Below are positions 16,012 to 22,590 of a DNA stretch of 45,430 nt, piece by piece (within the stretch, counting starts at the first letter, position 1; the number at the start of each line of letters is the position of its first letter). The position numbers and the translations under genes were made by a program. The DNA comes from Dissulfurispiraceae bacterium (GTDB lineage: Bacteria > Nitrospirota > Thermodesulfovibrionia > Thermodesulfovibrionales > Dissulfurispiraceae), in assembly GCA_050011415.1 (NCBI GenBank), contig JBEKJD010000001.1:1-45430 (forward strand), read 5' to 3'. The notes under the pieces are model-generated. The model saw only the letters and a program-made list of their open reading frames with translations, did no database searches and was not told the origin of the DNA.

Positions 16012-16497
16012 TCAAATTCTATTTCCCGATCTGATAAAATCCTCGAACGCCTCTGCGCATCGGCCATAAATATTTGAATGTTCCCTGACTCCTGAAGTAA
16101 AGTCGAAAACCCATTCCTTCATCCTTTCGAGAAAAATCGCATCATTGGTGAGTGCAAGGAACTCCAACTCCGCGCTGAAAAGATCGGGCGGCTCGCCTTC
16201 ATAGCCGAAGTGCAGCCCGTGTTTCTCATACAACTCCCGGACCTCAACAGATGCGTTGCCGTATACTACACCCTCCCGATAGTAAGACTCGTAGGGCGGA
16301 CAGAGAAGACGCGGGAACGCTGAGATGAAAAGCCTTGTGTATTCTGCCTGCATATCTTCGAGGGACATGCTCTTCAGCTCCCCCTCGCACAACGGACCGG
16401 AAAAATCAGCGGTCCTGGATATCTCTCCAAGCTCCTGCAGCGTATCCTCTGTCGGGTACGAAAAAACGAGGGAGAAGTAACGGAAGAGGTCCATCAT
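16012..16497 (-). CDS. TorD/NarJ/DmsD-family molybdoenzyme maturation chaperone
   Basis: 161 aa. AEYTRLFISAFPRLLCPPYESYYREG...PPDLFSAELEFLALT matches the redox-enzyme-maturation-protein pattern. The start overlaps the NrfD-like stop (ATGATG). Confidence 0.75.
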   Translation of the reverse strand: MMDLFRYFSLVFSYPTEDTLQELGEISRTADFSGPLCEGELKSMSLEDMQAEYTRLFISAFPRLLCPPYESYYREGVVYGNASVEVRELYEKHGLHFGYEGEPPDLFSAELEFLALTNDAIFLERMKEWVFDFTSGVREHSNIYGRCAEAFEDFIRSGNRI

Positions 16498-17765
16498 TGG
16501 CCGGCCTCCTTCACCGGTAATATCTCGACCAGCTTCAGGAAAGCCAGCACGAGGAACGCCATCACCCCGGCAGTGATCAGAAGTTCAACAATGGAGGGGA
16601 AATAGCTGTAGTACGAAGAAAAGACATTCTGCGGATTACCCAGGGTCCCTTTTATCTGGCCGACAGCTATCGGATAGCTCCACTCCACGGTCTCGCTGAG
16701 GAAGACAACGGGCACCTTCAGCGGCATGTTGTTATAAGCCGGCGGCAAGAGAAGTAAGCGGTGTGCGAACACGCCTATGATCACGGACAGGCTTCCCTGT
16801 ATCAATCTCTTTTTGTCCATCGGATATTTGACGAAGAGATAGACCGACAAGAGGATAAAGACAATCTCAACAGCGTGGAGCAGTGGATACCTGGTGAAAA
16901 CAAGCTTAAGGGCCTCGAAATCCTTACCAGTGTTCCACCAGAAACGTATCACAAAATCGTTGCCGTAGATGAAGAGCATGATGAGGGCAGCGACAGACGA
17001 AACCTTGGCGAGGAGAGCATAGGTGGCCTTAAGCTTCTCGCTGTAGCCGAAGACAAAGAGGGACGCGAGGATTACAACGGCAGGGCCCGTAGCAAGGGCA
17101 GCTGCAATAAAGGTAGGCGCGAGCGTGCCCCCGTACCACCACGGCCTGGCCATTTGCGTGGCGAGGACCCATGCAGTTACGGTATGAATAAGAATGGCGA
17201 GGGGCAGCGCAATGGGAGCCAGGAGCTTAGCCCTTTTGCCGGAATCTTCCCTGAGCTTCGCCATCTCATCAGGCGTCACCTCTTTTTTCCCCACGATGCC
17301 GTAAAACGGCAGTTTAACGCCGTTGGCAACGATGTCCGGGTACATGAGGGTGTACGTGTACAGAGCAGAAACGACCGCATACGCGGAAAGCACCAGAAAG
17401 TCCCACGGCAGCATGGATTTGAAATTCGGATGGAGGACCATGTTGTAAAGCCTGTCAGGCCTGCCGATATCAGGCAGAAGGATGCCCATCGCTCCCATTG
17501 CAAAAAGAAAAGCTGTAAGGGCCGCAACCCTGGCGATCGGCTTCAACTGTTTGGCATCGAAGATATAGATAGCGGAGGAGACGACAAGTCCTCCGGCAGC
17601 CGTGCCCACAAAAAATGCCCACGTGGCCACATACAATCCCCATGAAAAGGGGTTCCTCATATTCGTAGCTATCAGGCCGCTGTAGAGCTGGTACATCCAG
17701 GCGATAAGCCCCAATACCGCTACCGCGGTTAGACCCTTAAGTATATTATTATAGTTTTTTCCCAT
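16494..17765 (-). CDS. NrfD/PsrC-family polytopic membrane subunit (quinone-interacting anchor)
   Basis: 423 aa with about 10 hydrophobic segments. The NrfD-like start is LYSGLIATNMRNPFSWGLYVATWAFFVGTAAGG. Overlaps the FeS gene by 17 nt. Confidence 0.8.
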   Translation of the reverse strand: MGKNYNNILKGLTAVAVLGLIAWMYQLYSGLIATNMRNPFSWGLYVATWAFFVGTAAGGLVVSSAIYIFDAKQLKPIARVAALTAFLFAMGAMGILLPDIGRPDRLYNMVLHPNFKSMLPWDFLVLSAYAVVSALYTYTLMYPDIVANGVKLPFYGIVGKKEVTPDEMAKLREDSGKRAKLLAPIALPLAILIHTVTAWVLATQMARPWWYGGTLAPTFIAAALATGPAVVILASLFVFGYSEKLKATYALLAKVSSVAALIMLFIYGNDFVIRFWWNTGKDFEALKLVFTRYPLLHAVEIVFILLSVYLFVKYPMDKKRLIQGSLSVIIGVFAHRLLLLPPAYNNMPLKVPVVFLSETVEWSYPIAVGQIKGTLGNPQNVFSSYYSYFPSIVELLITAGVMAFLVLAFLKLVEILPVKEAGQ

Positions 17766-18498
17766 AGTTTATACCTCCCTTTCCTTCTTTCCTCGCGGGC
17801 GGAATGTAGAAAACCTTTGGATCGGTCCCCAGATCAGCCATCAGCTTGAACACATCCCGTGCGCGAATAATCTTCGAGACCTCGCTGTTGGGATCGTTCA
17901 GGTCTCCGAAAGTCCTGGCATTCCCCGGACAGCCGCGTACACAGGCGGGAAAAAGTCCCTGGTCAATATACTGAACACAGAAAGTACATTTTTCGACTAC
18001 GCCTTTAGGCCTCTTCGGGGCAAAGACGAGCCTGCCGTCCTTTGTCCTATGTTCAAGAGGATAGCCGTAGCGGTAGTCCTTTACCTTGAACCAATCCTCT
18101 TCAAAACCCGCATTCCTGAATCCCTCTCTGAAGCTGTCGTCCGCATCCTGCCAGTTGAACTGACGCACGCCATAAGGACAGGCTGTCATACAGTAGCGGC
18201 AGCCGATGCAGCGTTCGTAATCGACAAGCACGATACCGTCTTCTCTCTGCCAGGTGGCCCCTACAGGGCAGACCTTGACGCAGGGCGCCTTTTCGCAGTG
18301 CTGGCACGGGACGGGAAGATAGACCTCCGACAACTCCGGATATTCACCGGCTGGGATCATATGTTCCTTTGACCCCGTTGTCTCGACCCTTTGCCACCAT
18401 GTTCCGGGCGGAAGCGAATTATGTATCTTGCAGACAACAGCGCAACTTCTGCAGCCGATACAGCGGTTGAGATCAATGACCATTCCTAATTTACGCAT
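17749..18498 (-). CDS. four-cluster [4Fe-4S] electron-transfer subunit (PsrB/NrfC/DmsB type)
   Basis: Four ferredoxin motifs: CIGCRSCAVVC, CQHCEKAPCVKVCP, CIGCRYCMTACP and CTFCVQYIDQGLFPACVRGCP. Only 249 aa. Overlaps the catalytic subunit gene by 8 nt. Confidence 0.93.
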   Translation of the reverse strand: MRKLGMVIDLNRCIGCRSCAVVCKIHNSLPPGTWWQRVETTGSKEHMIPAGEYPELSEVYLPVPCQHCEKAPCVKVCPVGATWQREDGIVLVDYERCIGCRYCMTACPYGVRQFNWQDADDSFREGFRNAGFEEDWFKVKDYRYGYPLEHRTKDGRLVFAPKRPKGVVEKCTFCVQYIDQGLFPACVRGCPGNARTFGDLNDPNSEVSKIIRARDVFKLMADLGTDPKVFYIPPARKEGKGGINYGKKL

Positions 18499-21199: not shown

Positions 21200-21243
21200 A
21201 AACTACCTCCTGTCCATTGGTTGCAACGCCTGTTTTCTCTATC

Positions 21244-22590
21244 CTATTTTGCGTTTGCTCCGCCGTATCTCTCGTCATAAAACTTTTTTATCTTCTCGAG
21301 CTGTTCCTTGCTCATCCCTTTGAGATACCATTCGTGCCGCACATCCGGCTCCAGATACTTCTTCATGAGTTCGTTGTATAGCTCAGGGCCGGCCACGTTT
21401 TTTACCTCGGGCAGGAATTCCGAGTAGAAGTTTTTTGCAACATCATAGATACCGTGCCACCACGCATAATCAGGACCGGACATGGCTGCACCGTGGCGTG
21501 CGCGTCTTCCCTCGTGATGCCAAAGCTCAAAGTAAATCCAGTCAAGCTTGCTGTCAAAATCCGATTTGGATATTTTGCCCTTCGCCTTGAGTTCGTTTCT
21601 TATATTGGTTGCGGGGACCGCAAATTTTTCGTCATAGAAATTCACGAGGTTGTCGAACTGATTATAGAAACCCTCCACATATGGGGCCGAATGGCAGCTG
21701 TAGCATACATCTTTCATGTTCTGGCGGCGTTTATCTGCATTTTCGAGTTTCTTCGATATCGGCGGTCTGAGCGTCCAGCTGATTCTCGCCCCTACATCAT
21801 GGGTTACAGGCAGGTTCGGCGTTGCGCCCATGTGGCAGGTCGCGCATGTCGGGGCAGCGGTGTAGTCTTTTCCTACGACCCAGGAATCCTTGTGCATATT
21901 CATCCGTTTTTTGTTAGCTTCATAGAGAATGCCGTGCTTCGATTCCTGATATATCTCCATCTGCGGATGGTCCGGACCGAGATGGCATTTGCCGCAGGTC
22001 TGGGGTTCCCTCGCCTGGGCCTTTGAAAAGTTATGCCTTGTATGGCAGGCTGAACAGGAACCTTTTGAACCGTCCGGGTTGATACGTCCGATGCCGGTGT
22101 TGGGCCAACTGTCAGTATCGAGTTTTCCGTTAGCCAGCACCTTTACTTTTCCCCCGTGACACTGCAGGCAGCCGACTGCAACCGCCTCCCGCCCGCCAAC
22201 TACCTCACCAAGGTAATTGTCCAGTGAATTAAGGATATCTCCAGCCATGGCATGGTGGCTTGTTGTCATCTCCCGGACTTCATTAGGATGGCACTTTGAA
22301 CAACGCTTGGGTGTGACAAGCACTGCTATAGTAAAGCCGTTATGGTCCATTGCATCGGGGTCTGATTTCTCAGCCTTGTGACAACTATAGCAGTCAACCT
22401 GCTTTCCAGCATGCCTGCTTATTTCCCATTCCTTCACCAATGACGGTGATTGCGCATTGTGACATCCTATGCATGCCTGACCTTCATTGGAAACTTTGAT
22501 TTTAGCTGCTTCTCCTGTCCCCTCGCCCGCAACGATCATCATACAAAAAAGTATAAGGGCCGTTGTCCATAAGAATGTTTTCCGCTTCAT
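21244..22590 (-). CDS. exported octaheme cytochrome c, hydroxylamine oxidoreductase (HAO/epsilon-Hao-like) family
   Basis: Signal peptide [22 protein letters not shown]. There are exactly eight CxxCH motifs (CIGCH, CYSCH, CSKCH, CLQCH, CSACH, CGKCH, CATCH, CYSCH). The HAO-like segments are [17 protein letters not shown] and [33 protein letters not shown]. Confidence 0.88.
   Translation of the reverse strand: [448 protein letters not shown]

Follow-up and report, generated by a model that had tools for sequence, protein, structure and literature searches.

A candidate nitrate-to-ammonium operon joining an AF0176-type molybdoenzyme module and an HAO-family octaheme cytochrome in a Dissulfurispiraceae bacterium

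Several described respiratory systems rely on a four-cluster iron-sulfur (FeS) protein and an NrfD-family membrane protein: in E. coli NrfABCD, as in PsrABC and TtrABC, these two form the quinol dehydrogenase for a periplasmic catalytic subunit, and in the Nrf system they feed a multiheme nitrite reductase. Two published gene sets come closest to the operon described here. The first is Archaeoglobus fulgidus AF0176-AF0173, in which AF0174-AF0176 were initially annotated as a nitrate reductase, were later regarded as a type II enzyme of unknown function and were then assigned to perchlorate reduction on genomic and proteomic evidence (PMC8322695, PMC6299022). The second is found in Thermosulfurimonas dismutans and Dissulfuribacter thermophilus, where a cluster of nap genes, a HaoA homologue, an FeS protein and NrfD has been proposed to carry out NrfA-independent ammonification; these clusters lack NrfA, and Hcp is proposed to deal with hydroxylamine, alongside the 'reverse HURM' pathway of Nautilia profundicola (PMC5276818, PMC9676032). 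Here, we analyze a five-gene operon on the minus strand at positions 16012-22590 of a 45,430-nucleotide stretch of DNA from a Dissulfurispiraceae bacterium (contig JBEKJD010000001.1, positions 1 to 45,430; hereafter the window). Four of its genes encode an AF0176-type module, and the fifth, immediately upstream, encodes an octaheme cytochrome of the hydroxylamine oxidoreductase (HAO) family that appears to belong to the reductive class. On balance, we favor the view that this is an operon for dissimilatory nitrate reduction to ammonium (DNRA), in which the molybdenum (Mo) enzyme would reduce nitrate to nitrite and the octaheme cytochrome would carry nitrite on towards ammonium.

The five open reading frames (ORFs) are coding sequence with strong family matches, and a chance pattern is excluded. 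In transcriptional order they encode the HAO-family octaheme c-type cytochrome (21244-22590; 448 aa, with a Sec signal or anchor and eight CxxCH motifs), an AF0176-type Mo catalytic subunit of the bis-molybdopterin guanine dinucleotide (bis-MGD) kind, exported by twin-arginine translocation (Tat) (18491-21199; 902 aa; PF00384, PF01568 and PF04879), a four-cluster [4Fe-4S] subunit of PsrB/NrfC/DsrO/TtrB type (17749-18498; 249 aa; PF13247), an NrfD/PsrC-family integral membrane subunit (16494-17765; 423 aa; PF03916, E 5e-61) and a NarJ/DmsD/TorD-family chaperone for cofactor insertion and Tat proofreading (16012-16497; 161 aa; PF02613, E 7e-19). The Mo and FeS genes overlap by 8 nt, the FeS and NrfD genes by 17 nt, and the NrfD and chaperone genes by 4 nt. 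The cytochrome gene ends only 44 nt ahead of the Mo gene; this spacer holds a GGAGG ribosome-binding site 8 nt ahead of the ATG, and a scan of it found neither a terminator-like hairpin nor a promoter-like site. An earlier description of the locus, made from the letters alone and called here the sequence-only reading, had reported five minus-strand ORFs, and its coordinates, overlaps, 44-nt gap and quoted peptides are all borne out.

By HMM ranking and tree position, the Mo subunit is a member of the type II (NarG/PcrA/EbdA) group of the dimethyl sulfoxide (DMSO) reductase family, and within that group of a deep AF0176-type clade. Among NCBIfam hidden Markov models (HMMs), TIGR03479 ranks first at 510 bits, followed by EbdA (291), NarG (276), DmsA (255), ArrA (72) and TtrA (50); the leading score is below the model's cut-off of 985, yet this is the best model by a wide margin. 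The NarG score is likewise far below the cut-off of its equivalog model (1084 bits), which places the enzyme outside NarGHI as that model defines it, and the window contrasts with NarGHI in the Tat signal of the Mo subunit and in having no NarI. Searches of solved structures returned PcrA (4ydd, E 3e-113) ahead of EbdA, NarG, NxrA and PsrA, with nitrite oxidoreductase (NXR) 7b04 matched at E 5e-55, and the subunit is 35% identical to PcrA, 32% to pNarG, 28% to NarG and 28% to ClrA. A neighbor-joining tree (200 bootstraps, few references and Nap outgroups; EbdA, SerA, DdhA and NxrA were left out, and the PcrA sequence was transcribed from the structure-search alignment) recovers the AF0176-type clade of 23 taxa as monophyletic with 100% bootstrap, places it inside type II relative to the Nap outgroup with 100% bootstrap, and sets it outside a group of NarG, haloarchaeal pNarG, ClrA and PcrA with 99.5% bootstrap. 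The sequence-only reading had itself raised the possibility that the subunit belongs with Psr, Ttr, Arr or Dms enzymes; the distance between the TIGR03479 score and those of ArrA and TtrA rules this out.

Alignment to E. coli NarG supports the two active-site features that had been picked out by eye, a NarG-like FS0 spacing, as opposed to the C-x2-C-x3-C of Nap/Fdh/Psr types, and an Asp-bearing segment. The FS0 cysteines of the Mo subunit, C45-x3-C49-x3-C53...C83, align with NarG H49-x3-C53-x3-C57...C92, with a local match of KYVRSTC45SPNC49TGAC53 to KIVRSTH49GVNC53TGSC57 in NarG; C45, C53 and C83 are invariant in the clade alignment, and C49 is present in at least 90% of sequences. Because the H49C mutant 3ir5 scores best among NarG structures, the FS0 site of the window enzyme can be read as a natural Cys version of the NarG His ligand. 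D179 aligns with NarG D222 and PcrA D170, is invariant in the clade alignment, and is predicted from its alignment position to be the Asp ligand of Mo; the Tat motif of the subunit is TRRDF. The operon shares with PcrAB (Azospira, 4ydd) and E. coli NarGHI (1q16) the type II fold, the FS0 position, the Asp ligand and a NarJ-family chaperone. It differs from them in that the first FS0 ligand is Cys rather than His, the 249-aa beta subunit is of PsrB/NrfC rather than NarH/PcrB type, and the membrane partner is a heme-free NrfD protein rather than NarI or a PcrC/NapC chain; a further difference from bacterial Nar is that the Mo enzyme is periplasmic.

The partner subunits follow the same pattern, and Pfam and NCBIfam uphold the earlier identification of a PsrB/NrfC-type FeS subunit and an NrfD-type anchor. 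The FeS subunit has 16 cysteines in four cluster motifs and scores higher against the DsrO (209 bits), ArrB (195), TtrB (185) and NrfC (170; cut-off 378) models than against the type II beta model TIGR03478, whose 136 bits against a cut-off of 481 set it apart from NarH/PcrB-type beta subunits. Because it has no signal peptide, it is probably co-exported with the Tat-signal-bearing Mo subunit. The NrfD-family subunit shows about 10 hydrophobic segments in its hydropathy profile and no match to heme-binding families, and the chaperone matches the TIGR03482 and narJ models weakly. The operon differs from E. coli Nrf in lacking NrfA and NrfB and in that the catalytic partner encoded by an overlapping gene is the Mo enzyme. 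Qrc and alternative complex III resemble it in combining a multiheme cytochrome c, a Mo-like subunit, an FeS protein and NrfD in one operon, but their QrcB and ActB subunits are cofactor-less. A cofactor-less complex of that kind was considered and ruled out for the window: FS0, the Asp ligand, both MGD-binding domains and the chaperone are present, and the QrcB model gives the Mo subunit 60 bits against a cut-off of 440.

The closest named homologue of the Mo subunit is A. fulgidus AF0176 (70% identical), and AF0175, AF0174 and AF0173 are 71%, 59% and 41% identical to the FeS, NrfD and chaperone proteins in the same gene order. The two loci agree in the order of Mo, FeS, NrfD and chaperone genes, in the C-x3-C-x3-C FS0 motif, in the Asp ligand and in the Tat signal, and in both a DUF438-hemerythrin-PAS gene lies beside the module; the A. 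fulgidus locus differs in having an FmdE-like gene upstream and no octaheme gene, whereas the window adds the HAO-type cytochrome and an hcp/HPP/YiiM island. Further AF0176-type relatives occur in Ferroglobus, Geoglobus, Moorella, Carboxydothermus, Desulfosporosinus and Desulfitobacterium, the last four of which had been noted previously (PMC8322695, PMC6299022). A scan with the clade alignment, taking one genome per GTDB species, gave 80 species loci, and the Mo-FeS-NrfD order is kept in all of them save where the contig ends first. Their hosts include Nitrospirota, Thermodesulfobacteriaceae, Archaeoglobi, many Bacillota, Desulfobulbaceae and relatives, a Methanoperedenaceae metagenome-assembled genome (MAG), and others. 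Judged by this conservation, Mo-FeS-NrfD-chaperone is a known, biochemically uncharacterized four-gene unit, with the PsrB-type beta subunit and NrfD as clade-wide traits. The 'hybrid' make-up noted in the sequence-only reading is thus neither new nor peculiar to this locus: it is the invariant architecture of the AF0174-AF0176 clade of Archaeoglobus, Moorella, Desulfosporosinus and others, and the gene order was in part already described, for four of the five genes.

A related observation concerns a conjugative Alisedimentitalea plasmid (L170), on which positions 2960-8489 encode a chlorite dismutase, a type II Mo enzyme, an FeS subunit, a TorD-like chaperone and a cytochrome c. The Mo enzyme, 36% identical to that of the window, is the next-closest plasmid-borne relative, and the genes appear to form an unannotated (per)chlorate reductase cassette.

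The cytochrome has exactly eight CxxCH motifs (residues 40, 67, 97, 141, 179, 199, 249 and 296), no CxxCK motif, and a hydrophobic N-terminus as for a Sec signal or anchor. It is the sole ORF in the 45-kb window with at least two heme motifs, so no NapC/NrfH-type gene is present; this motif scan supports the sequence-only reading on both the heme count and the missing quinol dehydrogenase. PF13447 matches at 92 bits (cut-off 21.9), and the best solved relative is an Ignicoccus octaheme protein (IhOCC, 4qo5, E 1e-51), followed by N. europaea HAO (NeHAO), Kuenenia HOX (KsHOX), kustc0458 and HDH. A profile of the cytochrome family compared with the PDB gives the order 4qo5 (E 7e-75), 6h5l (2e-53) and NeHAO (3e-44). 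Two other identities were considered and rejected. For a TvNiR/TaNiR-type octaheme or a pentaheme NrfA, the CxxCK motif is missing and the NrfA and octaheme nitrite reductase chains match the profile weakly, over a single short stretch (E 1e-8 to 1e-3); an Otr or MccA protein, the alternative raised alongside the original HAO assignment, was ruled out because solely HAO-family matches were obtained. The family is very large, with more than 8000 matches and 1848 cluster representatives at E <= 0.001, and the top 120 matches are 73-96% identical and span Nitrospirota, Burkholderiales and Geothrix.

The presence or absence of a cross-link Tyr has been reported to encode the direction of HAO catalysis: Tyr-less enzymes, including epsilonproteobacterial HAOs and kustc0458, act as reductases of nitrite and hydroxylamine and lack competence for oxidation (PMC8042395). 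In the window cytochrome, the distal pair in CHLGPD207H208 aligns with CHSGVDH of NeHAO and CHMGIDH of KsHOX, and D207, H208 and Y375 are invariant in two family alignments (A2 and A3). When a profile that included distant paralogues was aligned to the PDB chains, the column of the NeHAO cross-link Tyr, Y467 in the segment NPGgWTY467TEG, was found to hold W377 (posterior probability ~0.9), and Y375, which the sequence-only reading had proposed as the cross-link Tyr, falls on NeHAO W465. Around these residues the window reads PDYAWWHG, similar to the QDVSWWWG of kustc0458, a structurally characterized HAO that lacks the cross-link and has V and W at the two columns. Since the Asp-His pair is present and Trp occupies the cross-link column, we place the cytochrome in the reductive class, with a proposed role as a periplasmic nitrite (and hydroxylamine/NO) reductase. 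IhOCC (4qo5) and kustc0458 HAOr (6h5l) share with it the eight CxxCH motifs, the HAO fold family and the missing cross-link Tyr; they differ from it in that IhOCC has D-V where the window keeps the Asp-His pair, and in that the window has no gene like that for the diheme partner kustc0457 adjoining the cytochrome gene. An AlphaFold2 model of the cytochrome, built from a 24-sequence alignment, reached a mean pLDDT (predicted local distance difference test) of 54 and a pTM (predicted template modeling score) of 0.42, with residues 68-283 mostly below 50; at this quality it can support neither a fold search nor a placement of the cross-link Tyr. Tyr375, two residues before the cross-link column, is invariant even in paralogues that are 25-38% identical.

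These alignments bear directly on the idea that the operon runs oxidatively, with the Mo enzyme as an NXR-like enzyme and the octaheme protein as a true hydroxylamine oxidoreductase, both feeding the quinone pool. Type II enzymes do include nitrite oxidoreductases, among them the 7b04 match, and the cytochrome has both the HAO Asp-His pair and the invariant Y375 near the cross-link region. Nonetheless, it is W377 and not Y375 that occupies the column of the Tyr said to set catalytic direction, which makes the hydroxylamine/nitrite-oxidizing option entertained by the sequence-only reading unlikely. The Mo clade also falls outside the NarG/Pcr/Clr reference group (in a tree built without NXR), the hosts are anaerobes (Thermodesulfovibrionales, sulfate reducers and Archaeoglobi), and the neighboring genes are reductive or detoxifying. 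Moreover, reduction of menaquinone by nitrite is strongly endergonic. Taking these points together, we regard oxidative operation as barely plausible.

In the DNRA-type operon that we favor, the NrfD-type membrane protein would oxidize menaquinol and anchor the complex, and electrons would be relayed by the PsrB/NrfC-like subunit, over its four [4Fe-4S] clusters, to FS0 and on to the Asp-ligated Mo-bisMGD center, which would reduce nitrate to nitrite at the outer face of the membrane and may additionally reduce chlorate or perchlorate. The NarJ-like chaperone would load the cofactor and retain the Tat-signal subunit until it is folded, with the signal-less FeS subunit exported alongside. The co-transcribed octaheme cytochrome would take nitrite on to ammonium, possibly releasing hydroxylamine or NO, and Hcp and other products of neighboring genes would handle leaked hydroxylamine, NO or nitrite. 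Gene structure, family membership, active-site residues, synteny statistics and motif enrichment are established by the analysis, whereas what the enzymes act on, which way the electrons run, co-transcription and the cytochrome's electron route are inferred; by analogy with E. coli, where NrfCD feeds NrfB/NrfA, the electron donor of the cytochrome could be the same FeS/NrfD module, or it could be an unlinked donor.

The strongest support for this scheme comes from the partners that the cytochrome and the Mo module keep in other genomes, and in this comparative context the nitrate-plus-nitrite function guessed at in the sequence-only reading emerges as the best-supported one. The octaheme orthologues in L165 (92% identical) and L166 (84%, Dissulfurispiraceae) are followed by NapA-NapB-NapD genes 26-44 nt downstream. 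Across 80 metagenome octaheme loci, 50 of which have at least 1.5 kb of downstream sequence, the gene directly after the octaheme gene is Nap-type in nine and belongs to a type II module in one. The downstream gene in L085 and L089 is NapA above the equivalog cut-off (1416 and 1567 bits, cut-off 904), and in L086, L098 and L111 the octaheme gene is followed by a gene for a 120-aa tetraheme protein and then by one for a 767-aa NapA-like protein. On the evidence of these gene orders, the nitrate-reductase module beside the octaheme gene is interchangeable.

The reverse comparison gives a matching picture. Downstream of the chaperone gene in L005 (Thermodesulfovibrionales, Mo subunit 84% identical) comes a gene for a TvNiR/TaNiR-type octaheme nitrite reductase (E 1e-169 to 2zo5; seven CxxCH motifs and one CxxCK), and positions 7001-16706 carry, on one strand, the Mo module, this TvNiR-type gene, a gene for a 117-aa tetraheme protein and a NapA-like gene, the last two making the same pair as in L086, L098 and L111. 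For TaNiR, the reduction of nitrite to ammonium has been proven by experiment (PMC12142623). In L067 (Bacillota), NrfH-like and NrfA-like genes come after the NrfD gene, and HAO-like paralogues lie close to the Mo module in L040 (Desulfobulbaceae) and L046 (Desulfosporosinus). By gene content, then, the nitrite-reductase partner of the Mo module is itself interchangeable among HAO-like, TvNiR-type and NrfHA enzymes, and three unrelated nitrite-reductase families in equivalent places are what one would expect of a Mo enzyme that produces nitrite, with the HAO-like protein as one of several means of consuming it.

Three arrangements in these loci are worth recording in their own right. L005 has two nitrate-reductase-type enzymes flanking one nitrite reductase. 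L025, L027, L035 and L072 (Peptococcaceae, Paradesulfitobacterium, Thermanaeromonas and Desulfitobacterium) each carry, at ~4100-6735, a gene for a 742-aa NapA-like protein, and this Bacillota protein is 39-40% identical to the NapA-like protein of L098. Finally, L084 encodes tandem octaheme HAO-family paralogues (1861-3087 and 3337-4692; 25% mutual identity) without a Mo module, followed by a DUF438-hemerythrin gene and an HPP gene 94% identical to that of the window; it looks like a close relative of the window organism that lacks the four-gene module.

The genes around the operon also point towards nitrogen oxides. Within 12 kb lie hcp, encoding Hcp of the prismane family (9290-11017, minus strand; PF03063, E 1e-169), three plus-strand genes assigned by Pfam as a CBS-domain, an HPP-family membrane and a YiiM-type MOSC protein (11345-13211), a cupin gene, and a gene for a DUF1858-DUF438-hemerythrin-PAS_10 protein (also from Pfam) that is convergent with the operon (14242-15669, plus strand); the remaining window genes are housekeeping. 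Hcp is a hydroxylamine/NO reductase, and the HPP family includes described nitrite transporters. In an unbiased clustering of neighbors over the 80 species loci (7-kb flanks), checked by tblastn with the window proteins, several neighbors recur in different phyla: HPP lies beside the Mo module in 12 loci, Hcp in 10, the CBS partner in nine, a MoeA-like protein in eight, FmdE in six and a flavodiiron protein in four, and DUF438-hemerythrin accompanies it in four species. A gene of this type adjoins AF0173 in A. fulgidus and the modules in L022, L033 and L057. An Rfam scan of positions 9000-23500 returned zero matches, and hence no molybdenum cofactor riboswitch.

Several smaller features surround these genes. 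A SelB gene for the selenocysteine-specific elongation factor lies 1 kb from hcp (6505-8433, minus strand), and an 84-aa Cys-rich ORF without a Pfam match lies between the cupin and DUF438 genes (13725-13979, minus strand). A 30-aa hydrophobic ORF, MDISVIATIGFTSLAIVGILILLVRTGKKT, with a good ribosome-binding site (15822-15912, plus strand) lies in the gap that separates the DUF438 gene from the operon's end. The same ORF is called as a gene (15652-15744) in the sister assembly L164, which is essentially the window's own locus in another assembly. In L164 the Mo gene is broken in two, encoding 322 and 577 aa (10365-13074), and the UvrD gene in four (6676-8620), most likely through assembly frameshift errors rather than as pseudogenes. 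L164 also carries, between its cupin and MOSC genes, a 311-aa NapH-like gene (18277-19212; PF12801, Fer4_5) that has no counterpart among the listed window ORFs.

A palindrome resembling Crp/Fnr-family operators links the operon to this island. The pattern ATGAT-N4-ATCAT, with at most one mismatch, occurs at eight sites in the window against 2.2 expected, a number reached in none of 100 shuffles, and four of the eight fall in the ~1.4 kb of intergenic DNA of the hcp/HPP/DUF438/operon island. One of these (22816-22829) is a perfect copy, tATGAT-N4-ATCATa, 226-239 nt upstream of the cytochrome start codon; a second perfect copy (11258-11271) sits between hcp and the divergently oriented CBS-HPP-YiiM genes, a copy with one mismatch (14015-14028) lies upstream of the DUF438-hemerythrin gene, and the fourth (15692-15705) follows that gene. 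A TATGAT hexamer resembling a -10 element (22793-22788, minus strand) begins 29.5 nt from the center of the 22816-22829 palindrome, a spacing that matches class II FNR-type promoter geometry, with a predicted transcription start near 22781 (minus strand); the palindrome is a putative operator. The extended 16-bp form TATGAT-N4-ATCATA lies 20-400 nt upstream of the octaheme gene in 21 of 77 related loci, at a density of 0.72 per kb compared with a background of 0.12 (some of these contigs are duplicates); besides the window, the loci that bear it include L003, L008, L009, L164 and many of L084-L139. In L008 and L009, both Nitrospirota without the cytochrome, the extended palindrome is found directly upstream of the Mo gene. 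This distribution suggests that hcp, the HPP group, the DUF438 gene and the operon form one Crp/Fnr-family regulon, and all of them, including the CBS and YiiM genes, would probably then respond to a single Crp/Fnr-like operator; no regulator gene for the palindrome was found in the window. L003 encodes a Crp/Fnr-family protein 3.3 kb past its operon, on the downstream side.

A number of observations weigh against a nitrate-to-ammonium function. To our knowledge, nitrate reduction has been demonstrated for no member of the AF0176 clade. The main caveat is that nitrate does not support growth of the Archaeoglobus species in which the module occurs, and A. neptunius, also a carrier, grows on neither nitrate nor (per)chlorate (PMC8322695). 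The sole experimental link for the clade is proteomic and concerns perchlorate in A. fulgidus (PMC8322695). The octaheme gene is directly upstream of the Mo module in only two of the 80 species loci, L004 (from a Nitrospirota MAG; Mo subunit 93% identical) and L079; its presence on the tree is patchy even between near relatives, as in L018, which lacks it while its sister L079 has it; and most octaheme genes are solitary, with varied neighbors. The metagenome-locus counts given above contain some duplicate contigs. A NapA-like gene is present inside the L005 cluster and just upstream of the Mo gene in L025, L027, L035 and L072, and should these be the nitrate reductase genes, the type II enzyme might act on something else. 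A regulon for stress or detoxification, as opposed to one for energy-conserving respiration, would accommodate Hcp, YiiM, HPP and hemerythrin too, and the cytochrome could yield NO or hydroxylamine instead of ammonium.

Some of these points raise the question of whether the Mo enzyme instead reduces (per)chlorate or another non-nitrogen oxyanion such as selenate or iodate, with the cytochrome acting as a wire or scavenger in the manner of PcrC. The best solved relative of the Mo subunit is PcrA, the plasmid-borne L170 relative adjoins a chlorite dismutase gene, and a separate NapA-like gene stands beside the module in L005 and several Bacillota loci. In addition, published accounts combine the perchlorate assignment of AF0174-AF0176 with the absence of nitrate respiration in Archaeoglobus (PMC8322695, PMC6299022). 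The perchlorate inference is weakened, however, by the finding that chlorate reduction is a general side activity of Nar-type enzymes (PMC4150442), so that perchlorate turnover leaves nitrate possible as the physiological substrate. Chlorite dismutase was found neither in the window nor in 163 related loci, and the recurrent neighbors are instead genes for nitrite, NO and hydroxylamine metabolism and three kinds of nitrite reductase. A cytochrome wire would be superfluous, because the NrfD/FeS module already provides the quinol link, and the cytochrome retains a catalytic-type Asp-His pocket. The aromatic residues F164, Y165 and W461 of PcrA (numbering from the 4ydd and 5e7o alignments), which we take to gate its active site, are mostly lost: F164 falls in a gap and W461 is replaced by Y463 (Tyr or Phe across the clade), leaving Y165 as the only one of the three retained. 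Thus, we consider a (per)chlorate or other non-nitrogen oxyanion reductase quite unlikely.

The rarity of the pairing raises a different concern, namely that a stand-alone octaheme detoxifier of nitrite, NO or hydroxylamine, part of a nitrosative-stress regulon with hcp, has merely landed beside a cassette-like Mo module. The cytochrome family is large and its genes mostly solitary, the pairing is limited to two of 80 species, and the gap between octaheme and Mo genes in L079/L096 is ~440 nt. In L084, whose octaheme protein is 89% identical to that of the window, the gene right after the cytochrome is the DUF438 gene and no Mo module is present. The window cytochrome is the same as its stand-alone or Nap-linked orthologues, and the Mo, FeS and NrfD proteins do not differ in length from their counterparts in loci that lack it. 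G+C content is 0.51-0.53 across the NrfD, FeS and Mo genes (16500-21500) and 0.46-0.47 on both flanks, with the cytochrome gene (0.47) like the flanks and unlike the Mo-NrfD genes, and outside the five genes the window and its 93%-identical relative L003 have different flanks; the G+C step and the differing flanks are consistent with cassette-like movement of the Mo module. Against mere adjacency, the same cytochrome stands repeatedly just upstream of three kinds of nitrate reductase, which is hard to explain without selection for joint expression. The 44-nt spacer, with its ribosome-binding site and neither a terminator nor a promoter-like site, argues in the same direction, as does the palindrome, which is upstream of the cytochrome gene in the window and of the Mo gene where the cytochrome is absent (L008 and L009). 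Chance adjacency is therefore unlikely in our view, although it deserves to be taken seriously.

If the Mo enzyme and the cytochrome do act on nitrate and nitrite in turn, as the DNRA-type operon would have them do, their coupling might go further: a single heme-free NrfD/FeS quinol dehydrogenase could feed both the Mo site (nitrate to nitrite, two electrons) and a trimeric Tyr-less octaheme protein (nitrite to ammonium, six electrons) in a membrane-bound supercomplex of all five gene products that channels nitrite without releasing it. The sequence-only reading had likewise imagined a self-contained complex, but the comparative data give no sign of dedicated physical association, given that the octaheme link is rare (2/80) and patchy and the subunit lengths are unchanged, and we regard such a supercomplex as quite unlikely.

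Set beside the Thermosulfurimonas and Dissulfuribacter clusters, the operon is alike in gene content, with a periplasmic nitrate reductase, an Hao homologue, a 4Fe-4S protein and NrfD; the combination of a nitrate reductase, an Hao homologue and an FeS/NrfD pair, which the sequence-only reading had put forward, is thus already in print (PMC5276818, PMC9676032). It differs in that their nitrate reductase is Nap and their FeS/NrfD pair is part of the cytochrome unit, whereas in the window this pair goes with the type II Mo enzyme, and the cytochrome is left without a dedicated gene for a quinol dehydrogenase. Every component family and the four-gene Mo module are already known. What appear to be new are the joining of an AF0176-type enzyme and a Tyr-less HAO in one operon, the comparative evidence tying the AF0176 clade to nitrate/nitrite metabolism, and the conserved palindrome.

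The physiological substrate of AF0176-type enzymes has been an open question since the A. fulgidus genome, and this locus and its relatives argue for nitrate/nitrite chemistry in bacteria. The conserved palindrome could serve to find the regulator and to define the regulon. Stand-alone Tyr-less HAO proteins, which form a very large family with members 75-80% identical across phyla, are candidate NrfA-independent nitrite reductases. Should the supercomplex exist, the widespread AF0176-type enzymes would join Nar and Nap as a third major class of respiratory nitrate reductase. More generally, if the nitrate-to-ammonium function proposed here is true, surveys that count only narG, napA and nrfA would undercount nitrate ammonifiers in anoxic sediments, aquifers and the subsurface, where Thermodesulfovibrionia, Desulfobulbaceae and Bacillota are common.

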